NCBI GenBank assembly: GCA_947631915.1
Contig: CANRNC010000005.1
Coordinates: 23,789 to 87,788, forward strand
Direction: 5' to 3'
Origin: an uncultured Clostridia bacterium
Lineage (GTDB): Bacteria > Bacillota > Clostridia > TANB77 > CAG-508
DNA length: 64,000 nucleotides
Shown here piece after piece: positions 5,401 to 64,000 of this stretch. The stretch's first letter is position 1, and every line of letters starts with the position of its first letter. A program made the position numbers and the translations under genes. Under the pieces are notes generated by a model. The model saw only the letters and a program-made list of their open reading frames with translations. It searched no databases and was not told the DNA's origin.

Positions 5401-8031
5401 ATGTATATGTTTAATAGAATTACAGTTAATCCTCAATTACCTAAAAGGATTAACAGATTAACAGAAATGACATATAATCTTTGGTGGGCATGGAATACGG
5501 ATTTCTTGAGATTATTTAAGGAAATTGATATTGATTTATGGGAACAAATTGGAAAAAATCCAGTTAAATTTTTAAAGAATGTATCCCAAGATAAAATAGA
5601 GCAATATGCTAAGGATGAAAAATTTTTACAAGAGTATGATAAGATTGTAGAAGACTTTGATAATTATATGAATAGTAAATCTACATGGTTCAATAAAAAA
5701 TATCCTGAAAACAAAAATGATTTAATAGCCTATTTTTCAGCTGAATATGGATTAGATCAGATTTTACCAATATATTCTGGAGGACTTGGTATATTATCAG
5801 GAGATCATTTAAAGGCGGCAAGTGATTTAGGACTACCTCTAGTAGGAGTGGGTTTATTATATAAAAATGGATATTTCCATCAAGTAATAAATGCAGAAGG
5901 TAGGCAAGAATCAGTTTATACTGACATAGATTTTGAAAACTTGCCAATACTGCCAGTTAAAGATGAGAGTGGAAATGATTTAATTATTTCGGAAAAAATA
6001 CAAAGAAGAAGAGTATATTTAAAAGTATGGCAGATAAATGTAGGAAGGGTTAAATTATATTTAATGGATTCCGATATTATTGAAAATGCTGATGAAGACT
6101 TAAAAGAAATAACAAAGAGATTATATGGTGGAGACCAAGAAATGAGGATAAAACAAGAGATTGTTTTAGGAATGGCAGGAACTAGATTAATAAAAGAATT
6201 AGGTCTTCAACCAACTGTTTATCATATGAACGAAGGTCATTCAGCTTTTCTATTATTAGAATTAATGAGACAATTAGTTGAAGAAAAGAAAGTTGCATTT
6301 AGAATTGCAAAAGATATTGTTACATCGCAAACTGTTTTTACAACACATACTCCAGTTCCAGCGGGAAACGATATTTTTACTATAGATTTAATGGATAAGT
6401 ATTTTAAAAACTATTGGACCTTATTAGGAATTGATAGAGAACTATTTATGAGACTAGGAGTGGCTCCAGATCAACCAACTGAAAGTGGATTTAATATGGG
6501 AATTTTAGCACTAAAAATAGCTGGTAAGAGAAATGGAGTAAGTAAACTTCATGGAGAAGTATCTAAAGAATTATTTACAGAATGTTGGCCAGATATTGCA
6601 TCAAAAGAATCGCCAATAACATATGTTACAAATGGTATACATACATGCTCATGGCTAGCACCAAGATTAAAAGAATTATACAATCAATATTTAATACCAT
6701 ATTGGCAAGACAAAATACACGAAGAAGATACATGGAAAAATGTTCAAAATATACCAAATTCAGAATTATGGTCTGCACATATGTCAAGAAAAGAAAAACT
6801 ATTAAAATTAGTAAAAGAAAATGTGACTACGAGATTAAGGAGAAATGGTACACCATATGATCAAATAATGGAAATAACTTCAAAGCTTAATCCTAATGCA
6901 TTAACAATAGGATTTGCTAGAAGATTCGCTACATACAAAAGAGCAACATTAATTTTTAGAGATTTAGAAAGAATTACGGAAATTTTAAATAATCAGGATA
7001 GACCTGTACAACTAATTTTTGCAGGAAAAGCACATCCAAGAGATGTTGAGGGTCAAGAACTAATTAGACAAATACATGAAATATCAATGAAACCACAATT
7101 CAAGGGAAAAATATTCCTTTTAGAAGATTATGATATTGAAATGGCGAGATATTTAGTCAGTGGTGTAGATGTCTGGTTAAATAACCCAAGAAGACCAATG
7201 GAGGCATCAGGAACAAGTGGACAGAAAGCATCAGTAAATGGAGTGGTTAATTTTAGTATATTAGATGGCTGGTGGGTAGAAGGCTATAATAAGAAAAATG
7301 GTTGGATAATAGGAACTAATGATGAATATGAATCATATGACATTCAAGATAATGCAGATTGCCAAAGTATTTATAATACTTTAGAGAATAAGATTATACC
7401 AATGTATTATAATAAAGAGGCTGATGAAGAATTTTCTGATGAATGGATACAAATGATGAAGAATTCTATCATATCTACTGGAGGAATGTATAGTACTGCA
7501 AGAATGGTCGCAGAATATACAGAAAGATTATATTTACCTTTGTGTAATCTTCATAATAAATATTATAGAGATTTAGAAAATGTAATAGGCTATAGTGAAT
7601 GGAAAATGAATGCAAGAAATGAATGGAAGAAAATTAAAATAACACAAAGTAATAATGTAAAAGACATTTCAATAGATGCAGGAAACAAGATAAATGTTAG
7701 TTGCAAAGTACAATTACCTAATATAAGTCCTGATACTGTATCAGTAGAAGTATACACGGCTAAAATAATGCCAGATGGCAGTTTTGAAGATATAAATGTT
7801 AGTCCTATGGTAAGAGATATAAAAGAAGAAAATCTATATACTGGAGAAATAGAGCTAAAAACAGGAGGAGACTATGGATATACATTTAGGGTAATGCCAA
7901 AACATCCAATGCTGATGGATTCAGCAAGTCTAAACTTAATTAAATGGCTTGAGGAAGAAGAAAATGAGGAAATTTCAGATGAAGAGCGAAAGGACGTTGA
8001 AAACATTGTTAAGGAATTAAATAATGTATAA
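5401..8031 (+). CDS. glgP: Alpha-glucan (glycogen/maltodextrin) phosphorylase, GT35 family
   Basis: FSAEYGLD…SGGLGILSGDHLKAASDLGLPLVGVGLLY and the PLP-lysine motif EASGTSGQKASVNGV. The ORF-track start at 5218 lies inside the promoter, so the start is taken at ATG 5401. Confidence 0.8.
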   Translation: MYMFNRITVNPQLPKRINRLTEMTYNLWWAWNTDFLRLFKEIDIDLWEQIGKNPVKFLKNVSQDKIEQYAKDEKFLQEYDKIVEDFDNYMNSKSTWFNKKYPENKNDLIAYFSAEYGLDQILPIYSGGLGILSGDHLKAASDLGLPLVGVGLLYKNGYFHQVINAEGRQESVYTDIDFENLPILPVKDESGNDLIISEKIQRRRVYLKVWQINVGRVKLYLMDSDIIENADEDLKEITKRLYGGDQEMRIKQEIVLGMAGTRLIKELGLQPTVYHMNEGHSAFLLLELMRQLVEEKKVAFRIAKDIVTSQTVFTTHTPVPAGNDIFTIDLMDKYFKNYWTLLGIDRELFMRLGVAPDQPTESGFNMGILALKIAGKRNGVSKLHGEVSKELFTECWPDIASKESPITYVTNGIHTCSWLAPRLKELYNQYLIPYWQDKIHEEDTWKNVQNIPNSELWSAHMSRKEKLLKLVKENVTTRLRRNGTPYDQIMEITSKLNPNALTIGFARRFATYKRATLIFRDLERITEILNNQDRPVQLIFAGKAHPRDVEGQELIRQIHEISMKPQFKGKIFLLEDYDIEMARYLVSGVDVWLNNPRRPMEASGTSGQKASVNGVVNFSILDGWWVEGYNKKNGWIIGTNDEYESYDIQDNADCQSIYNTLENKIIPMYYNKEADEEFSDEWIQMMKNSIISTGGMYSTARMVAEYTERLYLPLCNLHNKYYRDLENVIGYSEWKMNARNEWKKIKITQSNNVKDISIDAGNKINVSCKVQLPNISPDTVSVEVYTAKIMPDGSFEDINVSPMVRDIKEENLYTGEIELKTGGDYGYTFRVMPKHPMLMDSASLNLIKWLEEEENEEISDEERKDVENIVKELNNV

Positions 8032-20792: not shown

Positions 20793-20798
20793 TGTGTG

Positions 20799-20832
20799 AG
20801 GCAGACTTGAGTCTGCCTTATTATTTTTTTAG
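20799..20832 (+). terminator. Rho-independent terminator
   Basis: AGGCAGAC-ttga-GTCTGCCT then TATTATTTTTTT. Confidence 0.7.
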
Positions 20833-22180: not shown

Positions 22181-23221
22181 ATGAACAAAAAATCAATAGC
22201 AATAATATTTGGAGGTGTAAGTCCAGAATATGATGTATCACTAGAATCAGCATATAGTGTTATTACAAATATAGATAAAGAAAAATATGATATAATTCTA
22301 ATTGGTATTAGTAAATCAGGAGATTGGTTTAAATATGATGGAGATATAATTAATATTAAGAATAATACTTGGCAAGAAAATGGTAAATGTGCTAAAGTAG
22401 TAATTTCAACTAATATGAGTGATAAAGGAATAATCGAATTAGAGAATAATTTAAATATCATAAAAGTAGATGCTATTTTTCCAGTATTACATGGTTCAAA
22501 TGGAGAAGATGGAACTGTTCAAGGAATAGTACAATTATCAGGAATACCATTAATAGGTTGTGATGTACTTTCATCTAGTTTATGCATGAATAAATATTTA
22601 TCACACAAATTGGTAGAAAGCTATGGTATAAAAGTAGCTAAAAGCATAGTTGTAAATAATAATACAAGTAAAGATGAAATAAATATGAAATTAGAAGAAT
22701 TAGTATATCCTTTATTTGTAAAACCAATGAGAGCGGGATCTTCTTTTGGCATTACAAAAGTAGAAAATAAAGATCAAATAGATGAAGCTATTAAAGAAGC
22801 ATTAAAATATGATACAGAAATAATCATAGAAGAAAATGTTGATGGAATAGAAATAGGGTGTGCCATTTTGGGAAATGATGAATTAACAGTTGGAGAAATA
22901 GATGAAATAGAATTGAGTGAAGGATTTTTCGATTATACTGAAAAATACACATTGAAAACCTCAAAAATACATGTACCAGCCAGAATAGATAGAAAAACTT
23001 CTAAAAAAGCAAAAGAAACAGCAAAAAAAATATATAGGATTTTAAATTGTAGAGATTTTGCAAGAGTAGATATGTTTTTAACTCCAGGAGGAGATATTTA
23101 TTTTAATGAAATCAATACAATACCAGGATTTACTTCTCATAGTAGATATCCTAGTATGATGAAACAGATAGGAATTACGTTTGATAAATTAATAGATAAG
23201 TTAATAAGTTTGGAAATATAA
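22181..23221 (+). CDS. ddl: D-alanine--D-alanine ligase
   Basis: ATP-grasp Ddl pattern; omega-loop EKY consistent with D-Ala-D-Ala specificity (inference). Confidence 0.85.
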   Translation: MNKKSIAIIFGGVSPEYDVSLESAYSVITNIDKEKYDIILIGISKSGDWFKYDGDIINIKNNTWQENGKCAKVVISTNMSDKGIIELENNLNIIKVDAIFPVLHGSNGEDGTVQGIVQLSGIPLIGCDVLSSSLCMNKYLSHKLVESYGIKVAKSIVVNNNTSKDEINMKLEELVYPLFVKPMRAGSSFGITKVENKDQIDEAIKEALKYDTEIIIEENVDGIEIGCAILGNDELTVGEIDEIELSEGFFDYTEKYTLKTSKIHVPARIDRKTSKKAKETAKKIYRILNCRDFARVDMFLTPGGDIYFNEINTIPGFTSHSRYPSMMKQIGITFDKLIDKLISLEI

Positions 23222-23242: not shown

Positions 23243-24370
23243 ATGGAAAAACAACTTATAATGCAACATAGAGCTTGGGTAGAAATAGATTTAGATAATT
23301 TGAAAAATAATATAGAACAAATAAAAAGTGTTATCCCTAAAAAATGTAAAATTATGGCGATTGTTAAAGCAAATGCTTATGGACATGGAATGGTAGAGAT
23401 ATCAACCAAGTTAAATGAAATTGGCATACAAGATTTTGCTGTAGCTACATTGTCAGAAGGAATAACATTAAGAGAGAATAATATTAAAGGAAATATATTA
23501 ATATTAGGCTATACACCTTTAGAAGATATAAAATATGTAGAAAAATATGATTTGATACAAACTATAGTAGATTATGAATATGCAAAAGCAATAGAAGAAC
23601 TTAAATTAGATAAAAAACTTAAAGTACATATAAAAATAAATACAGGGATGAATAGAATAGGAGAATGTTACAAGAATTTAGATGATATAAAGAAAATTTA
23701 TGAAATGAAAAATTTAGAGATATTGGGGACATATAGTCATCTATGTGTAGCAGATAGTTTAGAACCTAAAGATGTAGAATTTACAAATAATCAAATCAAT
23801 AATTTTTTTAGTTGTATAGATAAAATAAAAGAATCTGGACATTATGTAGGAAAAATACATATTCAATCTAGTTATGGAATATTGAATTACTCTAATGTAG
23901 AATGTGATTTTGTACGTCCGGGTATTATTATGTATGGAGCATATAATGAATGTCAAACAAAAGTAAAAATTAATATAAGACCTGTATTATCTTTAAAATC
24001 AATAATAACAAGCGTTAAGCAAATACAAAAGGGAGAAACTGTAAGTTATGGAAGAACTTTTATGGCAAATGAAAACAAAAAAATTGCTGCAGTTTCTATA
24101 GGATATGGCGACGGATATCCAAGGAATTTAAGCAATAAAAATGTTAAGGTATTTGTAAATGGAGAGTATGCAGAAATAATTGGTAGAATCTGTATGGATC
24201 AACTAATGATAGATGTTACAAATATTAAAAATGTTAATCCAGGAGATGTAGTAGAACTTATAGGAGAACAAATACCTGTAGAAAGTGTTGCAAGTAAGGC
24301 AGATACAATTACAAACGAACTATTATGTAGATTAGGAGATAGATTAGGAAGAATCGCAAAATCTGAATAG
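23243..24370 (+). CDS. alr: Alanine racemase
   Basis: VKANAYGHG PLP-lysine motif; cytoplasmic, no membrane domain. Confidence 0.88.
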   Translation: MEKQLIMQHRAWVEIDLDNLKNNIEQIKSVIPKKCKIMAIVKANAYGHGMVEISTKLNEIGIQDFAVATLSEGITLRENNIKGNILILGYTPLEDIKYVEKYDLIQTIVDYEYAKAIEELKLDKKLKVHIKINTGMNRIGECYKNLDDIKKIYEMKNLEILGTYSHLCVADSLEPKDVEFTNNQINNFFSCIDKIKESGHYVGKIHIQSSYGILNYSNVECDFVRPGIIMYGAYNECQTKVKINIRPVLSLKSIITSVKQIQKGETVSYGRTFMANENKKIAAVSIGYGDGYPRNLSNKNVKVFVNGEYAEIIGRICMDQLMIDVTNIKNVNPGDVVELIGEQIPVESVASKADTITNELLCRLGDRLGRIAKSE

Positions 24371-24374
24371 AAAA

Positions 24375-26420
24375 ATGGAGGAAATAAGTTTGGGGAAAGA
24401 AGATAATATATTAGGAACTGAAAAAATAGGAAAATTAATTGCAAAGTTTTCAATACCATGTATCATATCGCTATTGGTAAATTCATTATATAATATAGTA
24501 GATCAAATATTTATTGGTTGGGGAGTAGGTTATTTAGGAAATGGAGCTACTAATGTAGTGTTTCCATTAACTATGATTTGTCTAGCATTTGCATTAATGC
24601 TAGGTGATGGTTCATCTGCTTATTTAAGTTTAAAGTTAGGTGAAAAGAAAAAAGATGAAGCTGCAAAAGGAGTAGGAAATGGAATAATAGTTTCAGTTAT
24701 TATAGCAATAATTTTTTGTGTTTTTACATTAACATTTTTACCACAATTATTAAATGTATTTGGTTGTACAGATGCTTTAAGAGATTATGCTATTGGATAT
24801 GGAAGAATTATTGCAATTGGATTACCATTTATGATGATAGGAACTACTTTGAATTCAATAATTAGAGCTGATGGAAGTCCAAGATATTCAATGACTTCAA
24901 TGGTAGCAGGTGCAATTTTAAACATTATACTAGATCCTATTTTTATATTTGTATTAAAAATGGGAGTAGAAGGAGCAGCTATTGCTACAATATTAAGTCA
25001 ATTCCTTACTTTTGCACTTAATATAATATATATAAGAAAATTCAAATCAATAACTTTGAGTAAAGAGAATTTTAAAATTAAGTTTAGTATATTAAAAAGA
25101 GTAGCAACTTTAGGAATAAGTAGTTTTGTAACACAAATGAGCTTTGTATTTGTTGTAGCAACTGAAAACAATTTACTTGCAAAATACGGTTTAGAGTCTA
25201 AATATGGTTCTGAAATACCTATAACAGTATTAGGAATTGTTATGAAAATTAGTCAAATTCTAAACAGTATTATAATAGGAATTGCAGCAGGTTCACAACC
25301 AATTTTTGGATATAACTATGGTGCAAGAAAATTTGAAAGAGTAAAAGAAACTTTAAAAATAGTTTTAGGATTGAGTGTTGTAATTAGTACAATTGCATTC
25401 ATTTTATTCCAAGCAATACCAGATAAGTTAATTTCTATATTTGGTAGTGGTGATGAACTTTATATGGATTTTGCATGTCTAGCATTTAAGACATATCTAT
25501 TACTATGTATTTGTAATGGTATACAAATACCTGCAGGAATTTTCTTCCAGGCAATTGGAAAGAGTATAAAAAGTGTTATCTTATCATTATCAAGACAAAT
25601 TGTATTTTTAATACCATCAATGATAATATTGAGTGGTATCTTTGGAATAATGGGAGTATTATATTCTGGACCAGTAGCTGATGGAATGGCATTTATTCTT
25701 GCAACAACTTTATTAATATTAGAAGTAAAAAATCTAAATAAGGAAACAATGAAGAGCAATGCATTAGACGATGATACAAGTACTGATAATAAATTGAGTA
25801 AACATATTGTAATTACAGTATCAAGAGAATATGGATCTGGTGGAAGATATGTTGGAAGATTAATTGCTGATAAATTGGGAATTAAACTATATGATAAAGA
25901 ATTAATAAAAAAGGTATCTAATGAAACAGGACTATCAGAGGAATACATAGAAAGTAATGAGCAAAAGAGAGAAGCATTAGAGAACTTAAATAATGGATAT
26001 TATTTTGGATTAAATTATTCAGATGAACTATTTATCAAGGAATCTGAAATTATTAGAGAGATAGCTGAAAAAGAATCTTGTGTTATAATAGGTAGATGTG
26101 CGGATTTTATTTTAAAAGATAAAGAAAATGTTGTAAAGGTATTTATATATAGCAATATGGAAGATAAAATAAAAAGAGTAACAGACATTTATGGAATAAA
26201 AAAGGAGGATGCAAAAAAAGAAATAAATAGAGTTAATAAGTTAAGAGCAAACCATTATAAACATTATACAGAAAGAGAATGGAGCGATAGTGAAAACTAT
26301 GATATAACAATAAATAGTGCGACATTAGGAGTAGAAAAAACAGCAGATTTAATTTGCAAGATGGTTTTAGAAGAACTAGAGAAAATCGATATACAGAAAA
26401 CACCTATTGAAAATAATTAA
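24375..26420 (+). CDS. Fusion protein: MATE/MOP-family transporter (N, ~460 aa) + cytidylate-kinase-like P-loop domain (C, ~210 aa)
   Basis: 12-TM MATE-like N-terminal region; C-terminal HIVITVSREYGSGGRYVGRLIADKLGIKLYDKELI… matches the cytidylate kinase-like family (PF13189-type) motif ISREYGSGG. Confidence 0.7.
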   Translation: MEEISLGKEDNILGTEKIGKLIAKFSIPCIISLLVNSLYNIVDQIFIGWGVGYLGNGATNVVFPLTMICLAFALMLGDGSSAYLSLKLGEKKKDEAAKGVGNGIIVSVIIAIIFCVFTLTFLPQLLNVFGCTDALRDYAIGYGRIIAIGLPFMMIGTTLNSIIRADGSPRYSMTSMVAGAILNIILDPIFIFVLKMGVEGAAIATILSQFLTFALNIIYIRKFKSITLSKENFKIKFSILKRVATLGISSFVTQMSFVFVVATENNLLAKYGLESKYGSEIPITVLGIVMKISQILNSIIIGIAAGSQPIFGYNYGARKFERVKETLKIVLGLSVVISTIAFILFQAIPDKLISIFGSGDELYMDFACLAFKTYLLLCICNGIQIPAGIFFQAIGKSIKSVILSLSRQIVFLIPSMIILSGIFGIMGVLYSGPVADGMAFILATTLLILEVKNLNKETMKSNALDDDTSTDNKLSKHIVITVSREYGSGGRYVGRLIADKLGIKLYDKELIKKVSNETGLSEEYIESNEQKREALENLNNGYYFGLNYSDELFIKESEIIREIAEKESCVIIGRCADFILKDKENVVKVFIYSNMEDKIKRVTDIYGIKKEDAKKEINRVNKLRANHYKHYTEREWSDSENYDITINSATLGVEKTADLICKMVLEELEKIDIQKTPIENN

Positions 26421-26499: not shown

Positions 26500-28225
26500 A
26501 TGGAAAGTAAAAAAATATTTGAAGCCAAAGAATTTAAAAATATGAAAGAGATAATTTACGAATCAGCAAAGAAGCATAATGAAAGAATAGCATTTGTAAT
26601 TAAGCATCAAGAAAACAAAAATATAAGTTATGAAGATATAACTTATAAACAATTGTTAGAAGATATTAATAGATTTGGCACTAGTTTATATGAAATGGGA
26701 CTTAAAGGTAAAAGAATAGCTATAATAGGTAGAAATAGGTATGAATGGGTATTAGCACATTTTTCAAATCTATTAGGAGGAATTGTTTCAGTACCACTAG
26801 ATAAAGATTTACAATATGAAGAACTCGAAAATTCATTAATTAGAAGCAATGCAGAATGTATAGTTTTTGACGAGAAGTTACTTGAAAGAATAGAAGAAAT
26901 CAAAGAAAAAGGTAATACACAATTAAAAGAATATATTTGTATGGCAGATATAGAAGGCTTTACATCTGTAAATGAACTAGTAAATAAAGGTGAAAAATTA
27001 TTAAAGGGACGGTAAAAAGGATTACGTAAATGCTCAAATAGATGAAAATGCAATGAATATATTATTATTTACTTCTGGAACTACATCAAAATCAAAAGCA
27101 GTAATGCTATCACATAAAAATATAGCATCTAATGTATATGCATTACAATGTGTAGAGGATATTAGGGATACAGATACAAATATAGCTTTTTTACCTTTTC
27201 ATCATATCTTTGGATCAACTTGCATGGCATTAATGTTAGCACAGGGAGTTAAAACAGTATTTCCTGATGGTTTAAGATATATTAAACAGAACTTAAATGA
27301 ATATAAAGTAACAATATTTGTGGGAGTTCCTGTTTTGACCGAAGCTATATATAAAACAATAATGAAGGAAATTGAAAAACAAGGCAAGACAAAATTAATA
27401 AAGTTTGCATTAAAAGTAAGTAATATTCTATTAAAATTACATATTGATATTAGAAGAAAATTATTTAAACAAGTTCTTGAAGCTTTAGGTGGAGAATTAA
27501 GATTTGTTATAACAGGAGGGGCACCTGCAGATCCATTAGGGCTTAAAGGATTTAATGACTTTGGAATAAAAACTGCCCAAGGTTATGGATTAACAGAAAC
27601 AGCTCCAGTAATATGTGCTGAAACTGAAAAACATAAAAAAAACGGTTCAGTAGGAATTCCAATGATAAATGACACTATTGAAATTGTAAATAAAGATGAA
27701 AATGGTATAGGAGAGATAAGAGTAAAAGGACCTAATGTGATGTTAGGATATTATGAAATGCCTGAAGAAACATCAAAAGTGTTAAAAGATGGATGGTTCT
27801 ATACAGGAGATTTAGGGTATTTTGATGAAGAAGGATTCTTGTTTATAACAGGAAGAAACAAAAATATGATAGTTCTAAAAAATGGTAAAAAAGTATTTCC
27901 AGAGGAACTTGAAACTTTGGTAAATAGATTAGAACTAGTTGAGGAATCTATGGTATTTGGTTTACCCGACGAACAAGATAAAAATGATATTAAATTATCA
28001 GTAAAAATTGTATATAATAAAGAAGTAGTAAAAGAAAAATATGAAGGAAAAACTGAAGAAGAATTATATGACATTATATGGAATGAAATTAAGGAGATAA
28101 ATAAAACATTTCCAAGATATAAACATATACAAAATATGATTCTAACTAGCGAAGAACTAATAAAGACAACCACCAAGAAAGTAAAAAGACAAGAGGAAAT
28201 GAAATTAATTTTAAGTAATAAATAA
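26500..28225 (+). pseudogene. Long-chain acyl-CoA synthetase-like AMP ligase paralog 1, +1 frameshift in G3 run 27006-27008
   Basis: ORF 26500-27015 (…KGEKLLKGR*) and ORF from 27005 frame (DGKKDYVNAQIDENAMNILLFTSGTTSKSK…) align collinearly with the intact paralog at 29403 (…RGKKLIENGNREFLDAKIDPNEMSIMLFTSGTTSKSK); deleting one G restores the frame. Confidence 0.7.
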
Positions 28226-59790: not shown

Positions 59791-59822
59791 GAACATGTAG
59801 GTGGGTAAACTTCTACATGTTC
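59791..59822. terminator. Bidirectional terminator between convergent polC and traX
   Basis: Perfect 10-bp stem GAACATGTAG/CTACATGTTC, 12-nt loop; T-run on minus side; traX stop inside stem. Confidence 0.55.
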
Positions 59823-60535
59823 ATTAGTTTATATATTATACATAATATCAATAAATGCAGTGGATAAAAAATATAAAATAACAGTTTTTGATTTTTTCCT
59901 TTTTGTCCATTATATAAGTTAATAAATATAAGAGGAATAAGACTGCAAAAAAATAGTCCAACATATATAAGTGAAAAATTACTAGCCATAAAATATGGCA
60001 TATAATATATAAAGGTTAGAATACTAACAAATGTATTCATTAGTATTTTATTATTATGGTATAGATAAAATAGAAATATAATAAATACACCATAGAAACC
60101 ATAATCAAAATTGAATAAATCTGCAAAAACTGATATGCAAAGGACAATTATTAATCCAAGCAAATTGTAGGAAAATTGCTCATTTTTTTTAACACATTTT
60201 TCTTTAGCTTTATGATGAAGTAGATCATAAATCGCAATACACATTAAACCTAAAATTAATGTAAAAATTATATTTAAATTCATATCAAGAGAAAAGGAAT
60301 ATTTAAAAAAAGCATATGGTATTTGAGAAATTAAAGCAAATATTAATAGTCTCATAAAATACTTTTTGAAGCTATGAGTATGAATATATCCTTCACTAAT
60401 TTGAAATGCAAAAATAGGAAAAGCAATTCTACCAATAAAGTTCATCCAAGAAAGATGGGCACCATAGAATAAATAACTAGAATGATCGAAGACCATAGTA
60501 ATTATTGCAATTAATCTTAAAGTATATGCAGTCAT
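59813..60535 (-). CDS. traX: TraX-family membrane protein
   Basis: MVFDHSSYLF…FPIFAF signature of TraX family. Confidence 0.7.
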   Translation of the reverse strand: MTAYTLRLIAIITMVFDHSSYLFYGAHLSWMNFIGRIAFPIFAFQISEGYIHTHSFKKYFMRLLIFALISQIPYAFFKYSFSLDMNLNIIFTLILGLMCIAIYDLLHHKAKEKCVKKNEQFSYNLLGLIIVLCISVFADLFNFDYGFYGVFIIFLFYLYHNNKILMNTFVSILTFIYYMPYFMASNFSLIYVGLFFCSLIPLIFINLYNGQKGKNQKLLFYIFYPLHLLILCIIYKLMNM

Positions 60536-60551
60536 AAAAGTACTCCTTTCA

Positions 60552-61511
60552 TTATCTTATGTTAGTTTCTCTTTGTTCATTATAACTATCTATAAAATAT
60601 AAAGGTCTATGTTTTGTTTCATAAAATGCCCTTCCAAGATATTCACCTATAACACCAAGGAATATTAACTGTAAACCACCTAAAAATAATATAATAACCA
60701 TAATAGAAGCATATCCAGGAACATCAATACCATAAATCAAAGTTCTTGCAATTATAACAACCATGTAAATGAAGCCTAATAATGATACTAGCATACCGAT
60801 TAAAGCAGCCCAACGAAGCGGAGCGGTTGTAAATGATGTTATTCCATCAATAGATAAGTTAGCTAATTTTCTATAATTCCATTTAGTTTTTCCGGCAGCT
60901 CTAGGGTCTCTATCATATAAAATTTCTTTTTTATTATATCCAATCCAACTATAAAGACCTTTAGTATATCTTTGAGATTCTCTCATTTGACGAATTGCTT
61001 CAACACAACGTCTATCCAATAATCTAAAATCGCCAGTATCAGTTTGAATTTTAATATTCGTCATACTTTGTAATACTCTATAATATCCCCAAGAAGTTAG
61101 TTTTTTTAAAGGAGATTCACCTTTTCTAGATTTACGTTTTGCATAGACATCATCATAACCTTCTTCCCAGTATTTTAACATTTCAGGAATTAACTCTGGA
61201 GGATCTTGTAAATCTGCATCTATATTTATCATACAGTCTCCTCTTACATAATCAAAACCGGCAATCATAGCGATTTCCTTACCAAAGTTCCTAGATAAAT
61301 TAACATAGCAAACCCTAGAATCGGTTTTACGCATTTCTTTTATTAATTCTAGAGTCTTATCTGTGCTTCCATCATTTACAAATAGAATTTCAAAGTTATA
61401 CTTTGGAAGACCATCTATTAGTTTAAGTAATCTTTCATAAAGCATTGGTAATACTTCTTCTTCATTATAAGCAGGAATTAATATTGTAACTAATTTTTTA
61501 TTTTCTTCCAT
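60552..61511 (-). CDS. GT2 polyprenol-phosphate glycosyltransferase (GtrB/ArnC-like)
   Basis: GT2 DxD-context (ILIPAYNEEE, NIDADLQD) plus two C-terminal TM helices; start at ATG 61511 after RBS AAAGGAAG. Confidence 0.8.
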   Translation of the reverse strand: MEENKKLVTILIPAYNEEEVLPMLYERLLKLIDGLPKYNFEILFVNDGSTDKTLELIKEMRKTDSRVCYVNLSRNFGKEIAMIAGFDYVRGDCMINIDADLQDPPELIPEMLKYWEEGYDDVYAKRKSRKGESPLKKLTSWGYYRVLQSMTNIKIQTDTGDFRLLDRRCVEAIRQMRESQRYTKGLYSWIGYNKKEILYDRDPRAAGKTKWNYRKLANLSIDGITSFTTAPLRWAALIGMLVSLLGFIYMVVIIARTLIYGIDVPGYASIMVIILFLGGLQLIFLGVIGEYLGRAFYETKHRPLYFIDSYNEQRETNIR

Positions 61512-61648
61512 AATTAATATACTTCCTTTCTGTACAAGTATAATAATGTATAATATTATCATAAAAAAAAGCAATAGTAAATAAAAAACTTGATATTTTT
61601 GTCATATTATAATATAATTATAACATTGATTAAAGAGGAGAAGATAAA

Positions 61649-61957
61649 ATGAAGGGGTTTAAGGAATGGTTACTAACATTACCTATAATTACATTTAAAA
61701 ACATATTCTTATATTTGTTAATAATAAATTTGTTAGGTTTTTTAGTAATGTTTATAGATAAGAAAAAAGCAGAAAAAGGTAGATGGAGAATATCTGAACA
61801 TGCACTATTTGTATTTACATGGCTAGGTGGGGGAATAGGGACAATAGCAGGAATGTATTTATTTAGACATAAAACTCAAAAGAAAAAGTTTACAATAGGT
61901 ATGCCTGCAATATTAGTTTTAGAAACTGTATTTTTGATTTATATGATAGTAATATAA
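61649..61957 (+). CDS. DUF1294-family small membrane protein
   Basis: GRWRISEHALF…LGGGIGTIAGMYLFRHKTQKKKF. Confidence 0.6.
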   Translation: MKGFKEWLLTLPIITFKNIFLYLLIINLLGFLVMFIDKKKAEKGRWRISEHALFVFTWLGGGIGTIAGMYLFRHKTQKKKFTIGMPAILVLETVFLIYMIVI

Positions 61958-61974
61958 ATGTATGAAAAATGAGA

Positions 61975-62007
61975 AACGAGGGATCACTAAAGTAGTGATC
62001 CCTCGTT
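61975..62007. other. Perfect 14-bp hairpin AACGAGGGATCACT-aaagt-AGTGATCCCTCGTT without clear T-run on + strand
   Basis: Direct reading; T-run (TTTTT) present on the minus-strand side. Confidence 0.5.
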
Positions 62008-62273
62008 GAAGACTTAATCGGGATATACGATTACCAAGAAGAAGTTTTCGCATTCTTTAATAGAGAAGAAAAGATTCTGTTTGGTATCCTTTTTTTGCTT
62101 TTGGCTTTTAGCACAATAGTTTACAATAACATTACAACATAAAACTATAATTATGTAAAGAATATAGAAATTGTGTCAGTAGTATTAATACAATATTATA
62201 AAAGATATTAACAACAGTAAAAATGTAATCATATTATATAATGAGAACAATTATATAAGAAGGTTACGATAAA

Positions 62274-62618
62274 ATGATAAAGAAAATATTAAAAAAATTA
62301 AAAAAGAATTTAACAAGAGGGCTTGGTGTTAATGAAATAGATTATAACACATTGCAGGATATGCTAAAAAACGATAGCAATACAATTTTACTAGATGTAA
62401 GAAGCATTCAAGAATTTAATGAAGGGCATTTGTTAGGAGCATTAAATTTGCCTCTTGGAGAATTAAAAAATAAAGTTAGTTTACTAATACCAAACCATGG
62501 ACAAACAATTATAGTATATTGTAAAATGGGAAGTAGAAGTTTAAAAGCCACAACGATTTTGAATAAAATGGGATATACAAATGTATATCAATTAAAAGGC
62601 GGATTAGATTCAATCTAA
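62274..62618 (+). CDS. Single-domain rhodanese (sulfurtransferase)
   Basis: Active-site loop YCKMGSRS. Confidence 0.8.
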   Translation: MIKKILKKLKKNLTRGLGVNEIDYNTLQDMLKNDSNTILLDVRSIQEFNEGHLLGALNLPLGELKNKVSLLIPNHGQTIIVYCKMGSRSLKATTILNKMGYTNVYQLKGGLDSI

Positions 62619-62635
62619 TCCGCATATTTTTTTTG
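62599..62635. terminator. Bidirectional terminator overlapping convergent rhodanese and pflA stops
   Basis: GCGGATTAGA…TCTAATCCGC 10-bp stem, T9 run on + side, TTTT on minus side. Confidence 0.65.
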
Positions 62636-63330
62636 CTCTTTCTACATCACTATCAGTCGCTTCACGAATATTTTCTAATTCATAAGCAATTTTTAAATCT
62701 GTCCATTTATATTTTCCCATAGTATGATATTTTAGAAATTCAAATTTTTTAACTGTTTTCAAGGATTCTACCAATTTTTTTAGTGAAATTAAATCATTTT
62801 CATCATCAGTAATACCAGGTATAAGAACTTGTCTTATCCACATATCTATATTATTATCACTTAAATAGCGAGCAAAGTTTAATTCTTTTTCATTACTAAA
62901 ACCAACAAGCTCTTTGCATTTATCAGGATTTATATGCTTTATATCTAATAAAACTAAATCTGTATAGTTTAACAATTCTTTCACATCATCAGTTATATCA
63001 ATCATACCGTGAAGTATCAACTGCAGTATTAATACCATATGACTTTAACTTTTTAAAAAGATTTGTTAATGCTTTAGCCTGAATTAGAGGTTCACCACCA
63101 GAGATAGTTACACCACCAGAAGGGCATATATAGTTTTTATAATTTAATATTTTATTTACTATTGAATCTATAGATACTAATTCTCCAGATTTAGAATCCC
63201 ATGTATCGCGATTTTGGCAGTATTTACAACGAAGGAAACAACCTTGTAAGAAGACTACATATCGAATACCAGGACCATCTAGTGTGCCAAAAGACTCAAA
63301 AGAATGGACACGTAAAAAATTATGATCCAT
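62610..63330 (-). pseudogene. pflA: Pyruvate formate-lyase activating enzyme, +1 frameshift near 63000
   Basis: N-terminal ORF (radical-SAM CFLRCKYCQN…GINTAVDTSRYD*) and C-terminal ORF (…IDITDDVKELLNYTDLVLLD…) are collinear with PflA; removing one A/T at 63000-63001 gives RYDDITDD. Confidence 0.7.
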
Positions 63331-63382
63331 AATAATCCTCCACTTATAAATAGGAAACACGTTAAAACGTGTTCCTTAAATA

Positions 63383-64000
63383 CTATATTTTTTCATGAAT
63401 AGTTCTATTAATAACATCTAATTGTTGTTCACGAGTTAGTTTTGTGAAATGAACGGCATATCCAGAAACTCTTATAGTAAGTTGAGGATATTTTTCGGGG
63501 TGTTCCATAGCATCAACTAATAAATCTCTATCAAAAACATTTACATTAATATGATGTCCTTTTTGAGAAAAGAAACCATCTAACATACTAACAAGATTAT
63601 TAATTTGAGTTTCACTATCATGTCCTAGAGTTGAAGGAGTTATAGAGAAAGTGTAAGATATACCATCTTCTGCATACTCATAAGGAAGTTTTGCAATACT
63701 GTTCATAACAGAAAGTGCACCATTAACATCTCTTCCATGCATTGGGTTTGCACCAGGTCCGAAAGGGGCACCATAGCGTCTTCCATCAGGAGTATTACCA
63801 GTATTTTTTCCATAAACTACATTTGATGTAATAGTAAGAACAGACATTGTTGTTTTAGAATTTTTATAAGTTTTGTATTTCTTTAATTTTCCTAAAAAAT
63901 TTTTAATTATAGAAATACCTATGTCATCAACTCTACTATCATCGTTACCGAATTTTGGAAAATCTCCTTCGACAACATAATCAACAGCAAGCCCAGTTTC
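63383..64000 (-). CDS. pflB: Formate C-acetyltransferase (pyruvate formate-lyase), C-terminal part; gene continues past window end
   Basis: Glycyl-radical motif [11 protein letters not shown]; upstream frame open to 64000. Confidence 0.9.

Follow-up and report, generated by a model that had tools for sequence, protein, structure and literature searches.

The gene at 24390..26420 (+) of the window, by which is meant the whole 64-kb stretch of DNA that was analysed, encodes one polypeptide in which about 25 linker residues join a 12-helix MATE transporter to a full-length PF13189 (cytidylate kinase-like) domain. The fusion recurs in at least 80 species-level genomes of uncultured gut Clostridia at 67-86% identity. 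The PF13189 domain is probably a built-in accessory of the pump, because MATE and PF13189 occur together, fused or as coupled neighbours, in many gut bacteria. Our overall reading, to which we give a probability of about one half, is that PF13189 is a cytoplasmic ligand-binding accessory which tunes proton-coupled efflux pumps.

Domain architecture and conservation of the fusion

Residue numbers follow the 681-aa frame opening at ATG 24375. The features of the gene are given below.

24377..24381 (+), Shine-Dalgarno GGAGG, 8 nt 5′ of TTG 24390, kept in the related loci L001 and L003
24390..26420 (+), gene of the MATE-PF13189 fusion, read from its likely TTG start and coding for 676 aa
24426..25733 (+), MATE core, residues 18-453, 12 transmembrane helices, predicted DinF subfamily
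24501..24503 (+), Asp43 in TM1 (NIVDQIF), aligned with Asp40 of DinF-BH and invariant among fused relatives
24933..24935 (+), Asp187 in TM5 (ILDPI), aligned with an Asp of DinF-BH (LLDVLF) and invariant among fused relatives
25734..25808 (+), variable linker, residues 454-478, with 0 columns conserved at 95% or more and low model confidence
25809..26396 (+), PF13189 (cytidylate kinase-like) domain, residues 479-674, NMP-kinase alpha/beta fold
25821..25847 (+), remodelled P-loop SREYGSGGR, residues 483-491, placed by profile alignment to CMP kinase 1q3t
26079..26099 (+), CVIIGRC motif, residues 569-575, in which G573-R574 correspond to the GRD motif of CMP kinases
26244..26246 (+), Arg624, third invariant arginine of the family, in the DKxRAxYY helix

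The open reading frame 24375..26420 (+) reads through without stops and gives 681 aa from ATG 24375, which lies 4 bp after the racemase gene and was taken as the start in an earlier reading made from the sequence alone (the sequence-only reading). That frame is open as described, but the true start is probably TTG 24390. The letters ATGGAGG at 24375 hold the Shine-Dalgarno GGAGG itself, the orthologues start at an aligned TTG or GTG preceded by the same GGAGG, and in public assemblies the gene is called as 676 aa (two independent assemblies; the 676-aa entry is 100% identical). With this start the fusion gene begins 19 nt past the upstream stop and has its own ribosome-binding site.

The fusion of a MATE transporter to a cytidylate-kinase-like domain, as proposed by the sequence-only reading, was confirmed by profile searches and by structure prediction. 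PF01554 (MatE, Pfam) matched twice along the protein (125.6 bits, cut-off 24.9, E 2e-36), TIGR00797 (matE, NCBIfam) scored 184.4 against 147.4, and PF13189 (Cytidylate_kin2, Pfam) matched residues 479-649 over nearly its whole profile (positions 1-175 of 176; 179.8 bits, cut-off 28, E 7.3e-53). In the AlphaFold2 model (pLDDT 82.8, pTM 0.65) residues 18-453 form 12 long helices and residues 479-674 an alpha/beta domain of five strands, joined by a linker of low confidence; the model is confident inside each domain and, with this pTM and linker, uninformative on their docking. The profile search for a deeper modelling alignment gave only relatives at 70% identity or above. The PF13189 domain is expected to be cytoplasmic because the C-termini of MATE transporters are cytoplasmic.

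The N-terminal half thus shows the MATE fold with 12 transmembrane helices, and from its sequence it is predicted to be a proton-coupled exporter of the DinF subfamily. The closest known pump is DinF-BH of Bacillus halodurans (BH2163; PDB 4LZ6, 5C6N, 5C6O), an H+-coupled multidrug MATE of that subfamily, in which D40, like D41 of PfMATE, is the TM1 aspartate that is protonated in proton coupling. DinF-BH stops after TM12 (446-464 residues), whereas in the fusion TM12 is followed by a linker of 25 residues and a cytoplasmic domain of 200. Few kinds of transporter are as numerous in gut Firmicutes as the MATE pumps, which have a part in tolerance of drugs and bile. The MurJ, SpoVB and Wzx flippases of the MOP superfamily were also compared: the MurJ/MVF profiles PF03023 and TIGR01695 gave no match to the fusion at E <= 0.01, the Wzx profile gave none in the Pfam and NCBIfam scans, and the spore_V_B model reached 27.9 bits against a cut-off of 372.3. 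Structural similarity to MurJ was less than half of that to DinF-BH, and the nearest structural relatives of the transporter are not MurJ.

Both domains are present in all of the best 120 matches (76-100% identity). Over 79 species-level orthologues the mean identity is 78% for the MATE half, 69.5% for the PF13189 half and 42% for the linker, and the columns conserved at 95% or more make up 47.5%, 38% and 0% of them respectively. On these alignments the fusion appears to be a conserved and selected architecture and not an accident.

The degenerate P-loop of the PF13189 domain

The PF13189 domain keeps the CMP-kinase fold and three invariant arginines, without the Walker A lysine and serine on which P-loop kinases depend for phosphate transfer. 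The family profile aligns with CMP kinase end to end, with Arg, Gly and Arg at the positions of the first Walker glycine, the lysine and the Ser/Thr; in the fusion these are the invariant Arg484, Gly490 and Arg491. Bacterial CMP kinase (Cmk; PDB 1Q3T, 2H92, 7L4A) carries Walker A as GxxxxGK[ST] where the fusion has R-E-Y-G-S-G-G-R, and the Asp of its GRD motif is Cys in the fusion. The (d)CMP kinase model TIGR02173 and its relatives gave 36.7-41.9 bits against a cut-off of 102.1, the best score being 41.9, and matched over the C-terminal two thirds only (model positions 65-167). The domain therefore has the NMP-kinase alpha/beta fold of a CMP kinase (EC 2.7.4.25) but neither the canonical Walker A GxxxxGK[ST] nor an equivalog score.

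The same holds over the family. Its motifs R-E-[YF]-G-S-G-G, C-V-I-V-G-R-C and D-K-x-R are all present in the fusion, and at least 90% of its members keep the flanking Cys residues of CVIIGRC. A canonical Walker A pattern occurs anywhere in the sequence in only 1 of 150 representatives, and Gly stands at the Walker lysine position in 118 of the 119 with a recognisable motif. The sequence-only reading had described a nucleotide-binding P-loop domain with an ISREYGSGG-type motif; the motif is there (25821-25847), the P-loop is degenerate and not canonical, and with Gly at the lysine position the word nucleotide-binding is unproven. In P-loop kinases the loss of the Walker lysine nearly abolishes catalysis. 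The residue after GSGG is variable (R, H, K, L, S, Y or A) and is basic (R, H or K) in 112 of the 119 representatives (94%), and residual phosphotransfer is possible because a shift of the alignment by one residue puts this basic residue at the lysine position. A YD motif as in shikimate kinase, the GR motif and a helix-borne Arg are also conserved.

Two stand-alone PF13189 proteins have structural-genomics entries, 3HDT of Clostridium symbiosum ('putative kinase') and 3FDI of Eubacterium ventriosum, each deposited with two chains; these proteins are soluble and of about 200 aa, while in the fusion the PF13189 domain is attached to a pump. The literature searched on PF13189, 'cytidylate kinase-like' proteins, 3HDT and 3FDI gave annotation-level mentions only and no published functional study. 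Among gut-enriched families PF13189 ranks with the largest and most strongly expressed, and it is abundant in gut metatranscriptomes (PMC13601570).

PF13189 partners and gene neighbourhoods

Outside the fused clade, MATE and PF13189 occur as neighbours that, from the gene junctions, appear translationally coupled. Among the stand-alone PF13189 genes of metagenomes, counted where the upstream ORF had at least 150 aa, 16 of 45 are directly preceded by a MatE gene of the same strand, against a background of 1 MATE among 375 ORFs lying two or more genes away. The gaps in these split pairs are mostly -4 to +32 bp, and ATGA and TAATG stop/start overlaps were read directly. Clustering of the pairs gives 12 groups at 90% identity, 8 at 70% and 5 at 55%; the pairs fall outside the fused clade in a rough tree and contain MATEs of two subfamilies, 40-47% and 22-29% identical to the MATE half of the window. 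They look like autonomous two-gene units because opposite-strand genes usually bracket them. No consistent regulator was found beside the pairs (one MerR, one response regulator, one SarA-like) and no cell-wall neighbours were seen. In Rfam searches for a riboswitch or other cis-RNA as a clue to the ligand, 13 split-pair loci gave only tmRNA and an unrelated fluoride riboswitch, with no ligand-naming cis-RNA, and the window gave nothing at gathering score.

The partners are not MATE proteins only. PF13189 is also fused to a DHA2 efflux MFS (TIGR00711, 236.8 against 230.2), to another efflux-like MFS and to DUF6198/YitT-like membrane proteins, so that on profile assignments it is a recurrent partner of predicted proton-coupled efflux pumps of the MATE, DHA2-type MFS and DUF6198 kinds. 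A cytidylate kinase-like gene of Fusobacterium nucleatum, located two genes away from one for an RND efflux permease, is induced together with that gene (PMC9848294). Most PF13189 genes stand alone, about two thirds of those sampled have no adjoining transporter, and in one lineage the coupled gene encodes a patatin phospholipase; PF13189 must therefore either work in trans or have a further role that needs no transporter. These fractions come from the 80 metagenome loci most similar to the domain of the window and are not an unbiased census.

The context of the fusion was compared over 80 genome loci by tblastn and clustering of the neighbouring ORFs. Three features upstream of the fusion in the window bear on the cell-wall question.

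20796..20821 (+), terminator-like hairpin, the only one between 20.7 and 28.4 kb in a consensus scan whose count is no higher than in shuffles
22181..23221 (+), VanG-type D-Ala--D-Ser ligase, 549.7 bits against a cut-off of 495, context only
23243..24370 (+), soluble VanT-type serine/alanine racemase, catalytic domain only, VanT-G catalytic-subunit model 524.8 against 460, context only

The sequence-only reading had named the two genes as plain ddl and alr, and the models correct this to the VanG and VanT types. The lone hairpin suggests that in this genome GH25, vanG and vanT may share a transcript with the fusion and the genes after it. The vanG-vanT adjacency is found in 4 of about 80 related species only (the window, L002, L003 and L005). 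The closest relative L001 (86% identity) shares the ATPase-GH25-fusion-acyl-CoA-ligase synteny with the window and has GH25 directly followed by the fusion, without vanG-vanT, and the approximately 75 other species have unrelated neighbours (354 neighbour clusters). A conserved link of the fusion to cell-wall genes is thus not supported, and the cell-wall gene context was rejected as a functional clue. The other recurrent neighbours in the clade of the window were not taken as evidence either, each being confined to a subset of the related species: an acyl-CoA-ligase-like gene downstream (about 10 loci), NrdD/NrdG (6-7 loci), dUTPase with CarD on the upstream side (4 loci) and, downstream, a housekeeping ddl (3 loci). 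Near 60 kb of the window there is a strand switch, at which no match to a dif-like site or replication terminus was found and the skew follows gene orientation.

The sequence-only reading had reasoned that the two halves occurring as separate genes in unrelated contexts would speak against it. The contexts are unrelated, which weakens the cell-wall part of that reading. Its view of the protein as 'not a simple drug pump' is a fair one, given the conserved fusion and the coupled adjacent genes in other lineages.

Possible role of PF13189 and competing explanations

The proposed mechanism is that the DinF-subfamily MATE would export a small molecule in exchange for protons, with PF13189 tethered to it by the flexible linker of about 25 residues. 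PF13189 would bind a phosphate-bearing ligand of the cytoplasm, possibly a nucleotide, and the liganded domain would tune or gate its tethered pump, or dock on the pump where it is encoded separately. The CBS pairs of MgtE, ClC and OpuA and the RCK/TrkA domains of K+ transporters offer a functional analogy only, being cytoplasmic ligand-sensing domains. The likeness is that of a soluble nucleotide-fold domain placed at the cytoplasmic terminus of several unrelated transporter families and also found as a separate adjacent subunit gene; the fold of PF13189 differs from both. A more specific version is possible, and we put it forward tentatively: PF13189 may be a previously unrecognised pseudo-kinase sensor module of proton-coupled efflux pumps (MATE, DHA2-MFS, DUF6198) in anaerobic gut bacteria, making their activity depend on a nucleotide or phosphometabolite signal of the cytoplasm, for instance energy charge. 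We know of no cytoplasmic ligand-sensing domain described for the MATE family, nor of any earlier description of control of MATE activity after translation, which the MATE-PF13189 linkage suggests. If the sensor version is true, no cytoplasmic regulatory domain would have been described for that family before it, and one of the most abundant and highly expressed uncharacterised families of the gut microbiome would gain a function. Through the fusion and the coupled operons across lineages, PF13189 has a functional setting, that of an efflux-pump accessory, which can be put to the test.

It is also conceivable, if rather doubtful, that PF13189 is an active but atypical small-molecule kinase or phosphotransferase forming a 'modify and export' or 'make and export' pair with the pump, so that a toxic or secreted compound would be phosphorylated in the cytoplasm and then expelled by the tethered transporter. 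Chloramphenicol phosphotransferase and other self-resistance kinases that share its fold work alongside exporters in a similar manner. The conserved GR motif, shikimate-kinase-like YD motif and helix-borne Arg would suit an enzyme, as would the basic residue that 94% of members with a recognisable motif have after GSGG, and fusion to three transporter families is expected if all of them carry the same product. Abundance and high expression in gut metatranscriptomes are also what a metabolic enzyme might show (PMC13601570). These points are set against the family-wide absence of the Walker lysine and the Mg-binding Ser/Thr, the residue following GSGG that is not fixed, and the different subfamilies of the partner MATEs, which argue against a single shared substrate. 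The lost lysine would also suit a domain whose role does not depend on a ligand and which serves polytopic efflux proteins as a module for structure, oligomerisation or membrane targeting and assembly, and so would the attachment to unrelated membrane folds and the two chains in each of the solved homologues. We consider such a module unlikely, since a pure scaffold is not expected to keep three invariant arginines and a glycine-rich loop at the phosphate-binding site of related kinases, and MATE transporters work as monomers in all solved structures.

The sequence-only reading had favoured an exporter or flippase that moves a cell-wall precursor under nucleotide control and is functionally linked to the neighbouring D-Ala-D-Ala (here D-Ala-D-Ser) ligase and racemase, and this we regard as very improbable. 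GH25, vanG and vanT do precede the fusion with no terminator-like site between them in this genome, the housekeeping ddl lies directly downstream in L026, L028 and L042, and a SpoVB/MurJ-like gene lies divergently upstream in five species. Three peptidoglycan-related contexts among so many neighbourhoods are however about what chance would give (rough estimate), those five species encode their SpoVB/MurJ-like protein separately beside the fusion, and the vanG-vanT pair is missing from the closest relative. The transporter itself is of DinF type with the proton-coupling Asp, lacks MurJ and Wzx profile matches and is structurally far closer to DinF-BH, and the split operons elsewhere are free of cell-wall neighbours. 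In the neighbourhood itself, no SxHxxGxAxD motif of VanXY/VanY was found in any frame of the window (motif-level test), and no VanY domain in the nine ORFs profile-scanned from 18.7 to 31.1 kb, nor VanR/VanS among the ORFs scanned there. The vanG/vanT pair appears to stand in a commensal without the rest of a van operon, which matters for resistome surveys because they would flag both genes.

The fusion gene and its two halves

The gene and the motif by which its C-terminal domain was recognised are placed in the window as follows.

24375-26420, + strand: fusion open reading frame (ORF), 681 codons, translated without interruption
25821-25847, + strand: motif SREYGSGGR, quoted in the sequence-only reading

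The MATE plus PF13189 content proposed in that reading was borne out by Pfam and NCBIfam profile matches above cut-offs and by the motif itself. Two MatE repeats were matched (Pfam, E 2e-36), the PF13189 domain is full length at residues 479-649 (Pfam, E 7.3e-53, profile positions 1-175 of 176) and a MATE subfamily model is exceeded (NCBIfam, 184.4 bits vs cut-off 147.4). The protein belongs to both families, and its database annotation reads only 'MATE family efflux transporter'. The AlphaFold2 model, built from 40 input sequences (mean pLDDT 82.8), has twelve long helices at residues 18-453, a low-confidence stretch at 454-478 and an alpha/beta domain of five strands at 479-674. The start codon is probably TTG 24390 rather than ATG 24375, because GGAGG within 'ATGGAGG' sits 8 nt 5' of this TTG, the orthologues in the closest relative (L001) and in another genome (L003) start at an aligned GTG or TTG with the same GGAGG ahead, and the identical protein in public gene calls has 676 aa. 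The ATG taken earlier as the start is part of the ribosome-binding site (ATGGAGG, window 24375-24392).

Judged by its sequence, the transporter half is a genuine MATE protein of the DinF subfamily and is predicted to be a proton-coupled DinF-type efflux pump. Asp43 in TM1 is aligned with Asp40 of DinF-BH, the H+-coupled MATE transporter of Bacillus halodurans, and the Asp of TM5 (ILDPI) is also retained; both are invariant among the fused relatives. The C-terminal domain is placed in the cytoplasm because, to our knowledge, every solved MATE structure has its C-terminus on the cytoplasmic side. The fusion was also examined for the defining features of a MurJ-type flippase and of a CMP kinase, and it has neither set.

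The C-terminal half has an NMP-kinase fold. A family profile of 68 PF13189 members was aligned end to end with the CMP kinase 1q3t (E 0.002), and here the invariant Arg of the family falls on the first Walker-A glycine, the fourth residue of GSGG takes the Walker lysine position, the Arg after GSGG takes the Walker Ser/Thr position and GRC is aligned with the GRD motif. A recognisable phosphate-loop motif was present in 119 of 150 PF13189 representatives; in these the lysine position is Gly in 118 and Ala in one, and the residue after GSGG is R in 88, H in 17 and K in 7. The (d)CMP kinase model gave 37-42 bits vs a cut-off of 102, with only its C-terminal two thirds matched. The profile alignment, the Gly at the lysine position and this weak score together argue for a protein of CMP-kinase fold whose phosphate loop has been remodelled and which is predicted not to be a canonical kinase. 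Thus, of the earlier description as a nucleotide-binding cytidylate-kinase-like domain, the fold and family are retained, while nucleotide binding is not established, the Walker lysine being gone. Three arginines are invariant: R484 belongs to the phosphate loop, R574 to the GR motif, and R624 is the third. Both cysteines beside the GR motif (CVIIGRC, window 26079-26099) are kept by 90% or more of the PF13189 members in the family alignment A1, but one of the pair is missing from each of the two homologues with a crystal structure.

Conservation and gene neighbourhood

In a survey of one genome per species, at least 80 species of uncultured gut Clostridia, among them Clostridium sp. CAG:389, CAG:440 and Candidatus Scatovivens, were found to carry the fusion (67-86% identity), and both domains are present in all of the best 120 database matches. 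Across 79 orthologues the mean identity is 78% in the MATE half, 69.5% in the PF13189 half and 42% in the linker, and 47.5%, 38% and 0% of the columns, respectively, show conservation of 95% or more. This pattern reads as two constrained domains on a free tether, and the fusion appears to be under selection.

The upstream genes, regarded earlier as ordinary ddl and alr, score instead as a VanG-type D-Ala--D-Ser ligase (22181-23221, 549.7 vs 495) and as the soluble catalytic subunit of a VanT-type serine racemase (23243-24370, 524.8 vs 460; both NCBIfam), the racemase having its catalytic domain only, without the membrane domain. A motif scan of the whole 64-kb window gave no VanY/VanXY motif, and neither VanR nor VanS was found in the ORFs that were scanned between 18.7 and 31.1 kb. 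It is possible that GH25, vanG, vanT and the fusion are co-transcribed in the window genome, because the single terminator-like hairpin in 20.7-28.4 kb lies 3' of the upstream P-type ATPase gene.

Among the at least 80 species, vanG/vanT adjoins the fusion only in the window and in three other genomes (L002, L003 and L005). It is a clean 2.2-kb presence/absence difference and is missing in L001 (86% identity), which has the same ATPase-GH25-fusion-acyl-CoA-ligase order with 33 bp between the GH25 stop and the fusion. In other species the neighbours, counted as four genes per side, were sorted into 354 clusters, most of them of housekeeping genes, and three species have a housekeeping ddl downstream. 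In five related species (L020, L032, L034, L053 and L062) a SpoVB/MurJ-like gene is divergent and just upstream, and therefore a separate MurJ-type protein is encoded beside the fusion; this MOP protein (e.g. L020 6232-7737, minus strand) gave 265 bits with the spore_V_B model, below the cut-off of 372. By a rough estimate, the number of peptidoglycan-related neighbours is about that expected by chance.

Association of PF13189 proteins with efflux pumps

The search of 1.84 billion representative proteins with the C-terminal domain gave 3,922 relatives at E <= 1e-10, mostly stand-alone proteins of about 200 aa, and some are C-terminal fusions in proteins of 430-460 or 600-670 aa. Three kinds of N-terminal partner were identified by Pfam and NCBIfam, namely MATE, MFS and DUF6198/YitT-like membrane proteins, and one MFS partner is a DHA2 efflux family member (236.8 vs cut-off 230.2). 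Efflux pumps whose folds are unrelated thus recur as partners of PF13189. A family member of Fusobacterium nucleatum is encoded two genes away from an RND efflux permease, with which it is co-induced (PMC9848294).

Metagenomes were scanned with the family alignment, and a simple longest-ORF rule was used to define the ORFs. The 80 loci obtained are those most similar to the window's domain, so their fractions are no census: 61 stand-alone, 11 MATE-fused and 8 with another N-terminal region, seven of which have the size of DUF6198 fusions (430-450 aa; a match of size only). Of the stand-alone genes, 45 have an ORF of 150 aa or more upstream, and in 16 of these 45 a MatE gene is immediately upstream on the same strand, against a background of one MATE in 375 ORFs two or more genes away. 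The gaps in these split pairs are mostly -4 to +32 bp, and direct reading of two of them (L140 and L127) gave the stop/start overlaps ATGA and TAATG with Shine-Dalgarno sequences. Clustering of the pairs at 90, 70 and 55% identity gives 12, 8 and 5 groups. The pairs lie outside the fused clade in a rough neighbour-joining distance tree without support values, and two kinds of MATE partner are found in them, one with 40-47% and the other with 22-29% identity to the MATE half of the fusion in the window. Opposite-strand genes usually flank them, and hence they behave as autonomous two-gene units. The MATE-then-PF13189 order is common to split pairs and fusion, and one further locus (L146, 3055-6579) has the order PF13189, MATE, PF13189, with a family member on each side of the pump gene. 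The linkage is solid and reaches far beyond the window's clade. The earlier reading had named, as the outcome that would refute it, halves that occur as unrelated separate genes in unrelated contexts. For the halves the result favours that reading, since where separate they are coupled; for the contexts, which have no relation to the cell wall, it goes against it. The split pair of L134 is followed after about 1.1 kb by a fluoride riboswitch (7719-7793, 41.2 bits vs cut-off 34), which appears unrelated to the pair.

Possible role of the partner domain

We assign a probability of about one half to the proposal that the cytoplasmic PF13189 domain binds a phosphate-bearing ligand and would tune the pump, as CBS and RCK domains serve other transporters. 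The main rival is that the domain is an atypical active kinase forming a modify-and-export pair with the pump. Its support comes from the kinase fold, from the basic residue that follows GSGG and from the high expression of the family (in a 2026 atlas the cytidylate kinase-like family stands, without a function, among the most highly expressed families and, together with MATE families, among the most numerous gut-enriched ones; PMC13601570), but the catalytic lysine is absent from the fold, and we consider this reading rather unlikely. That the domain has a purely structural role is less likely again, and is held to be quite improbable. The cell-wall exporter suggested by the D-Ala-D-Ala setting is the least probable, at the level of a very long shot, since the vanG/vanT arrangement is not conserved (four species, absent from the closest relative) and the contexts elsewhere are unrelated to the cell wall.

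Some observations do not sit well with a simple pump accessory. Besides the RND-linked member of Fusobacterium nucleatum, most PF13189 members are stand-alone and not beside transporters, and one Clostridia lineage (L081-L090, e.g. L081 6001-7916) is translationally coupled to a patatin-like phospholipase gene, the PF13189 stop sharing a base with its start; an opposite-strand HAD gene follows, and then PAP2 and MatE, two and three genes on. Some members may possibly have a lipid-related role.

In the literature search no paper was found on PF13189 function, on the two PF13189 crystal structures or on a cytoplasmic domain that serves a MATE pump as an accessory. The pump family is already known; what is new is its undescribed, widely recurring pseudo-kinase partner. 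With this linkage a role that can be tested is at hand for a large orphan family, by a mechanism that we infer.

Downstream of the fusion, a frameshift divides an acyl-CoA-ligase-like (AMP-binding) gene into ORFs of 171 aa (26500-27015) and 390 aa (27053-28225) in different frames, and in relatives this gene is a single one of about 575 aa. The split looks real and not an assembly error, because the same 171-aa fragment is present in an independent assembly (L172). In no part of the window did an RNA family reach its Rfam gathering score, and no dif-like site was found. Over the first 59 kb (1-59800) the GC skew is strongly positive and nearly all sizeable ORFs run on the + strand, and beyond about 60 kb both orientation and skew are mixed (59800-64000).
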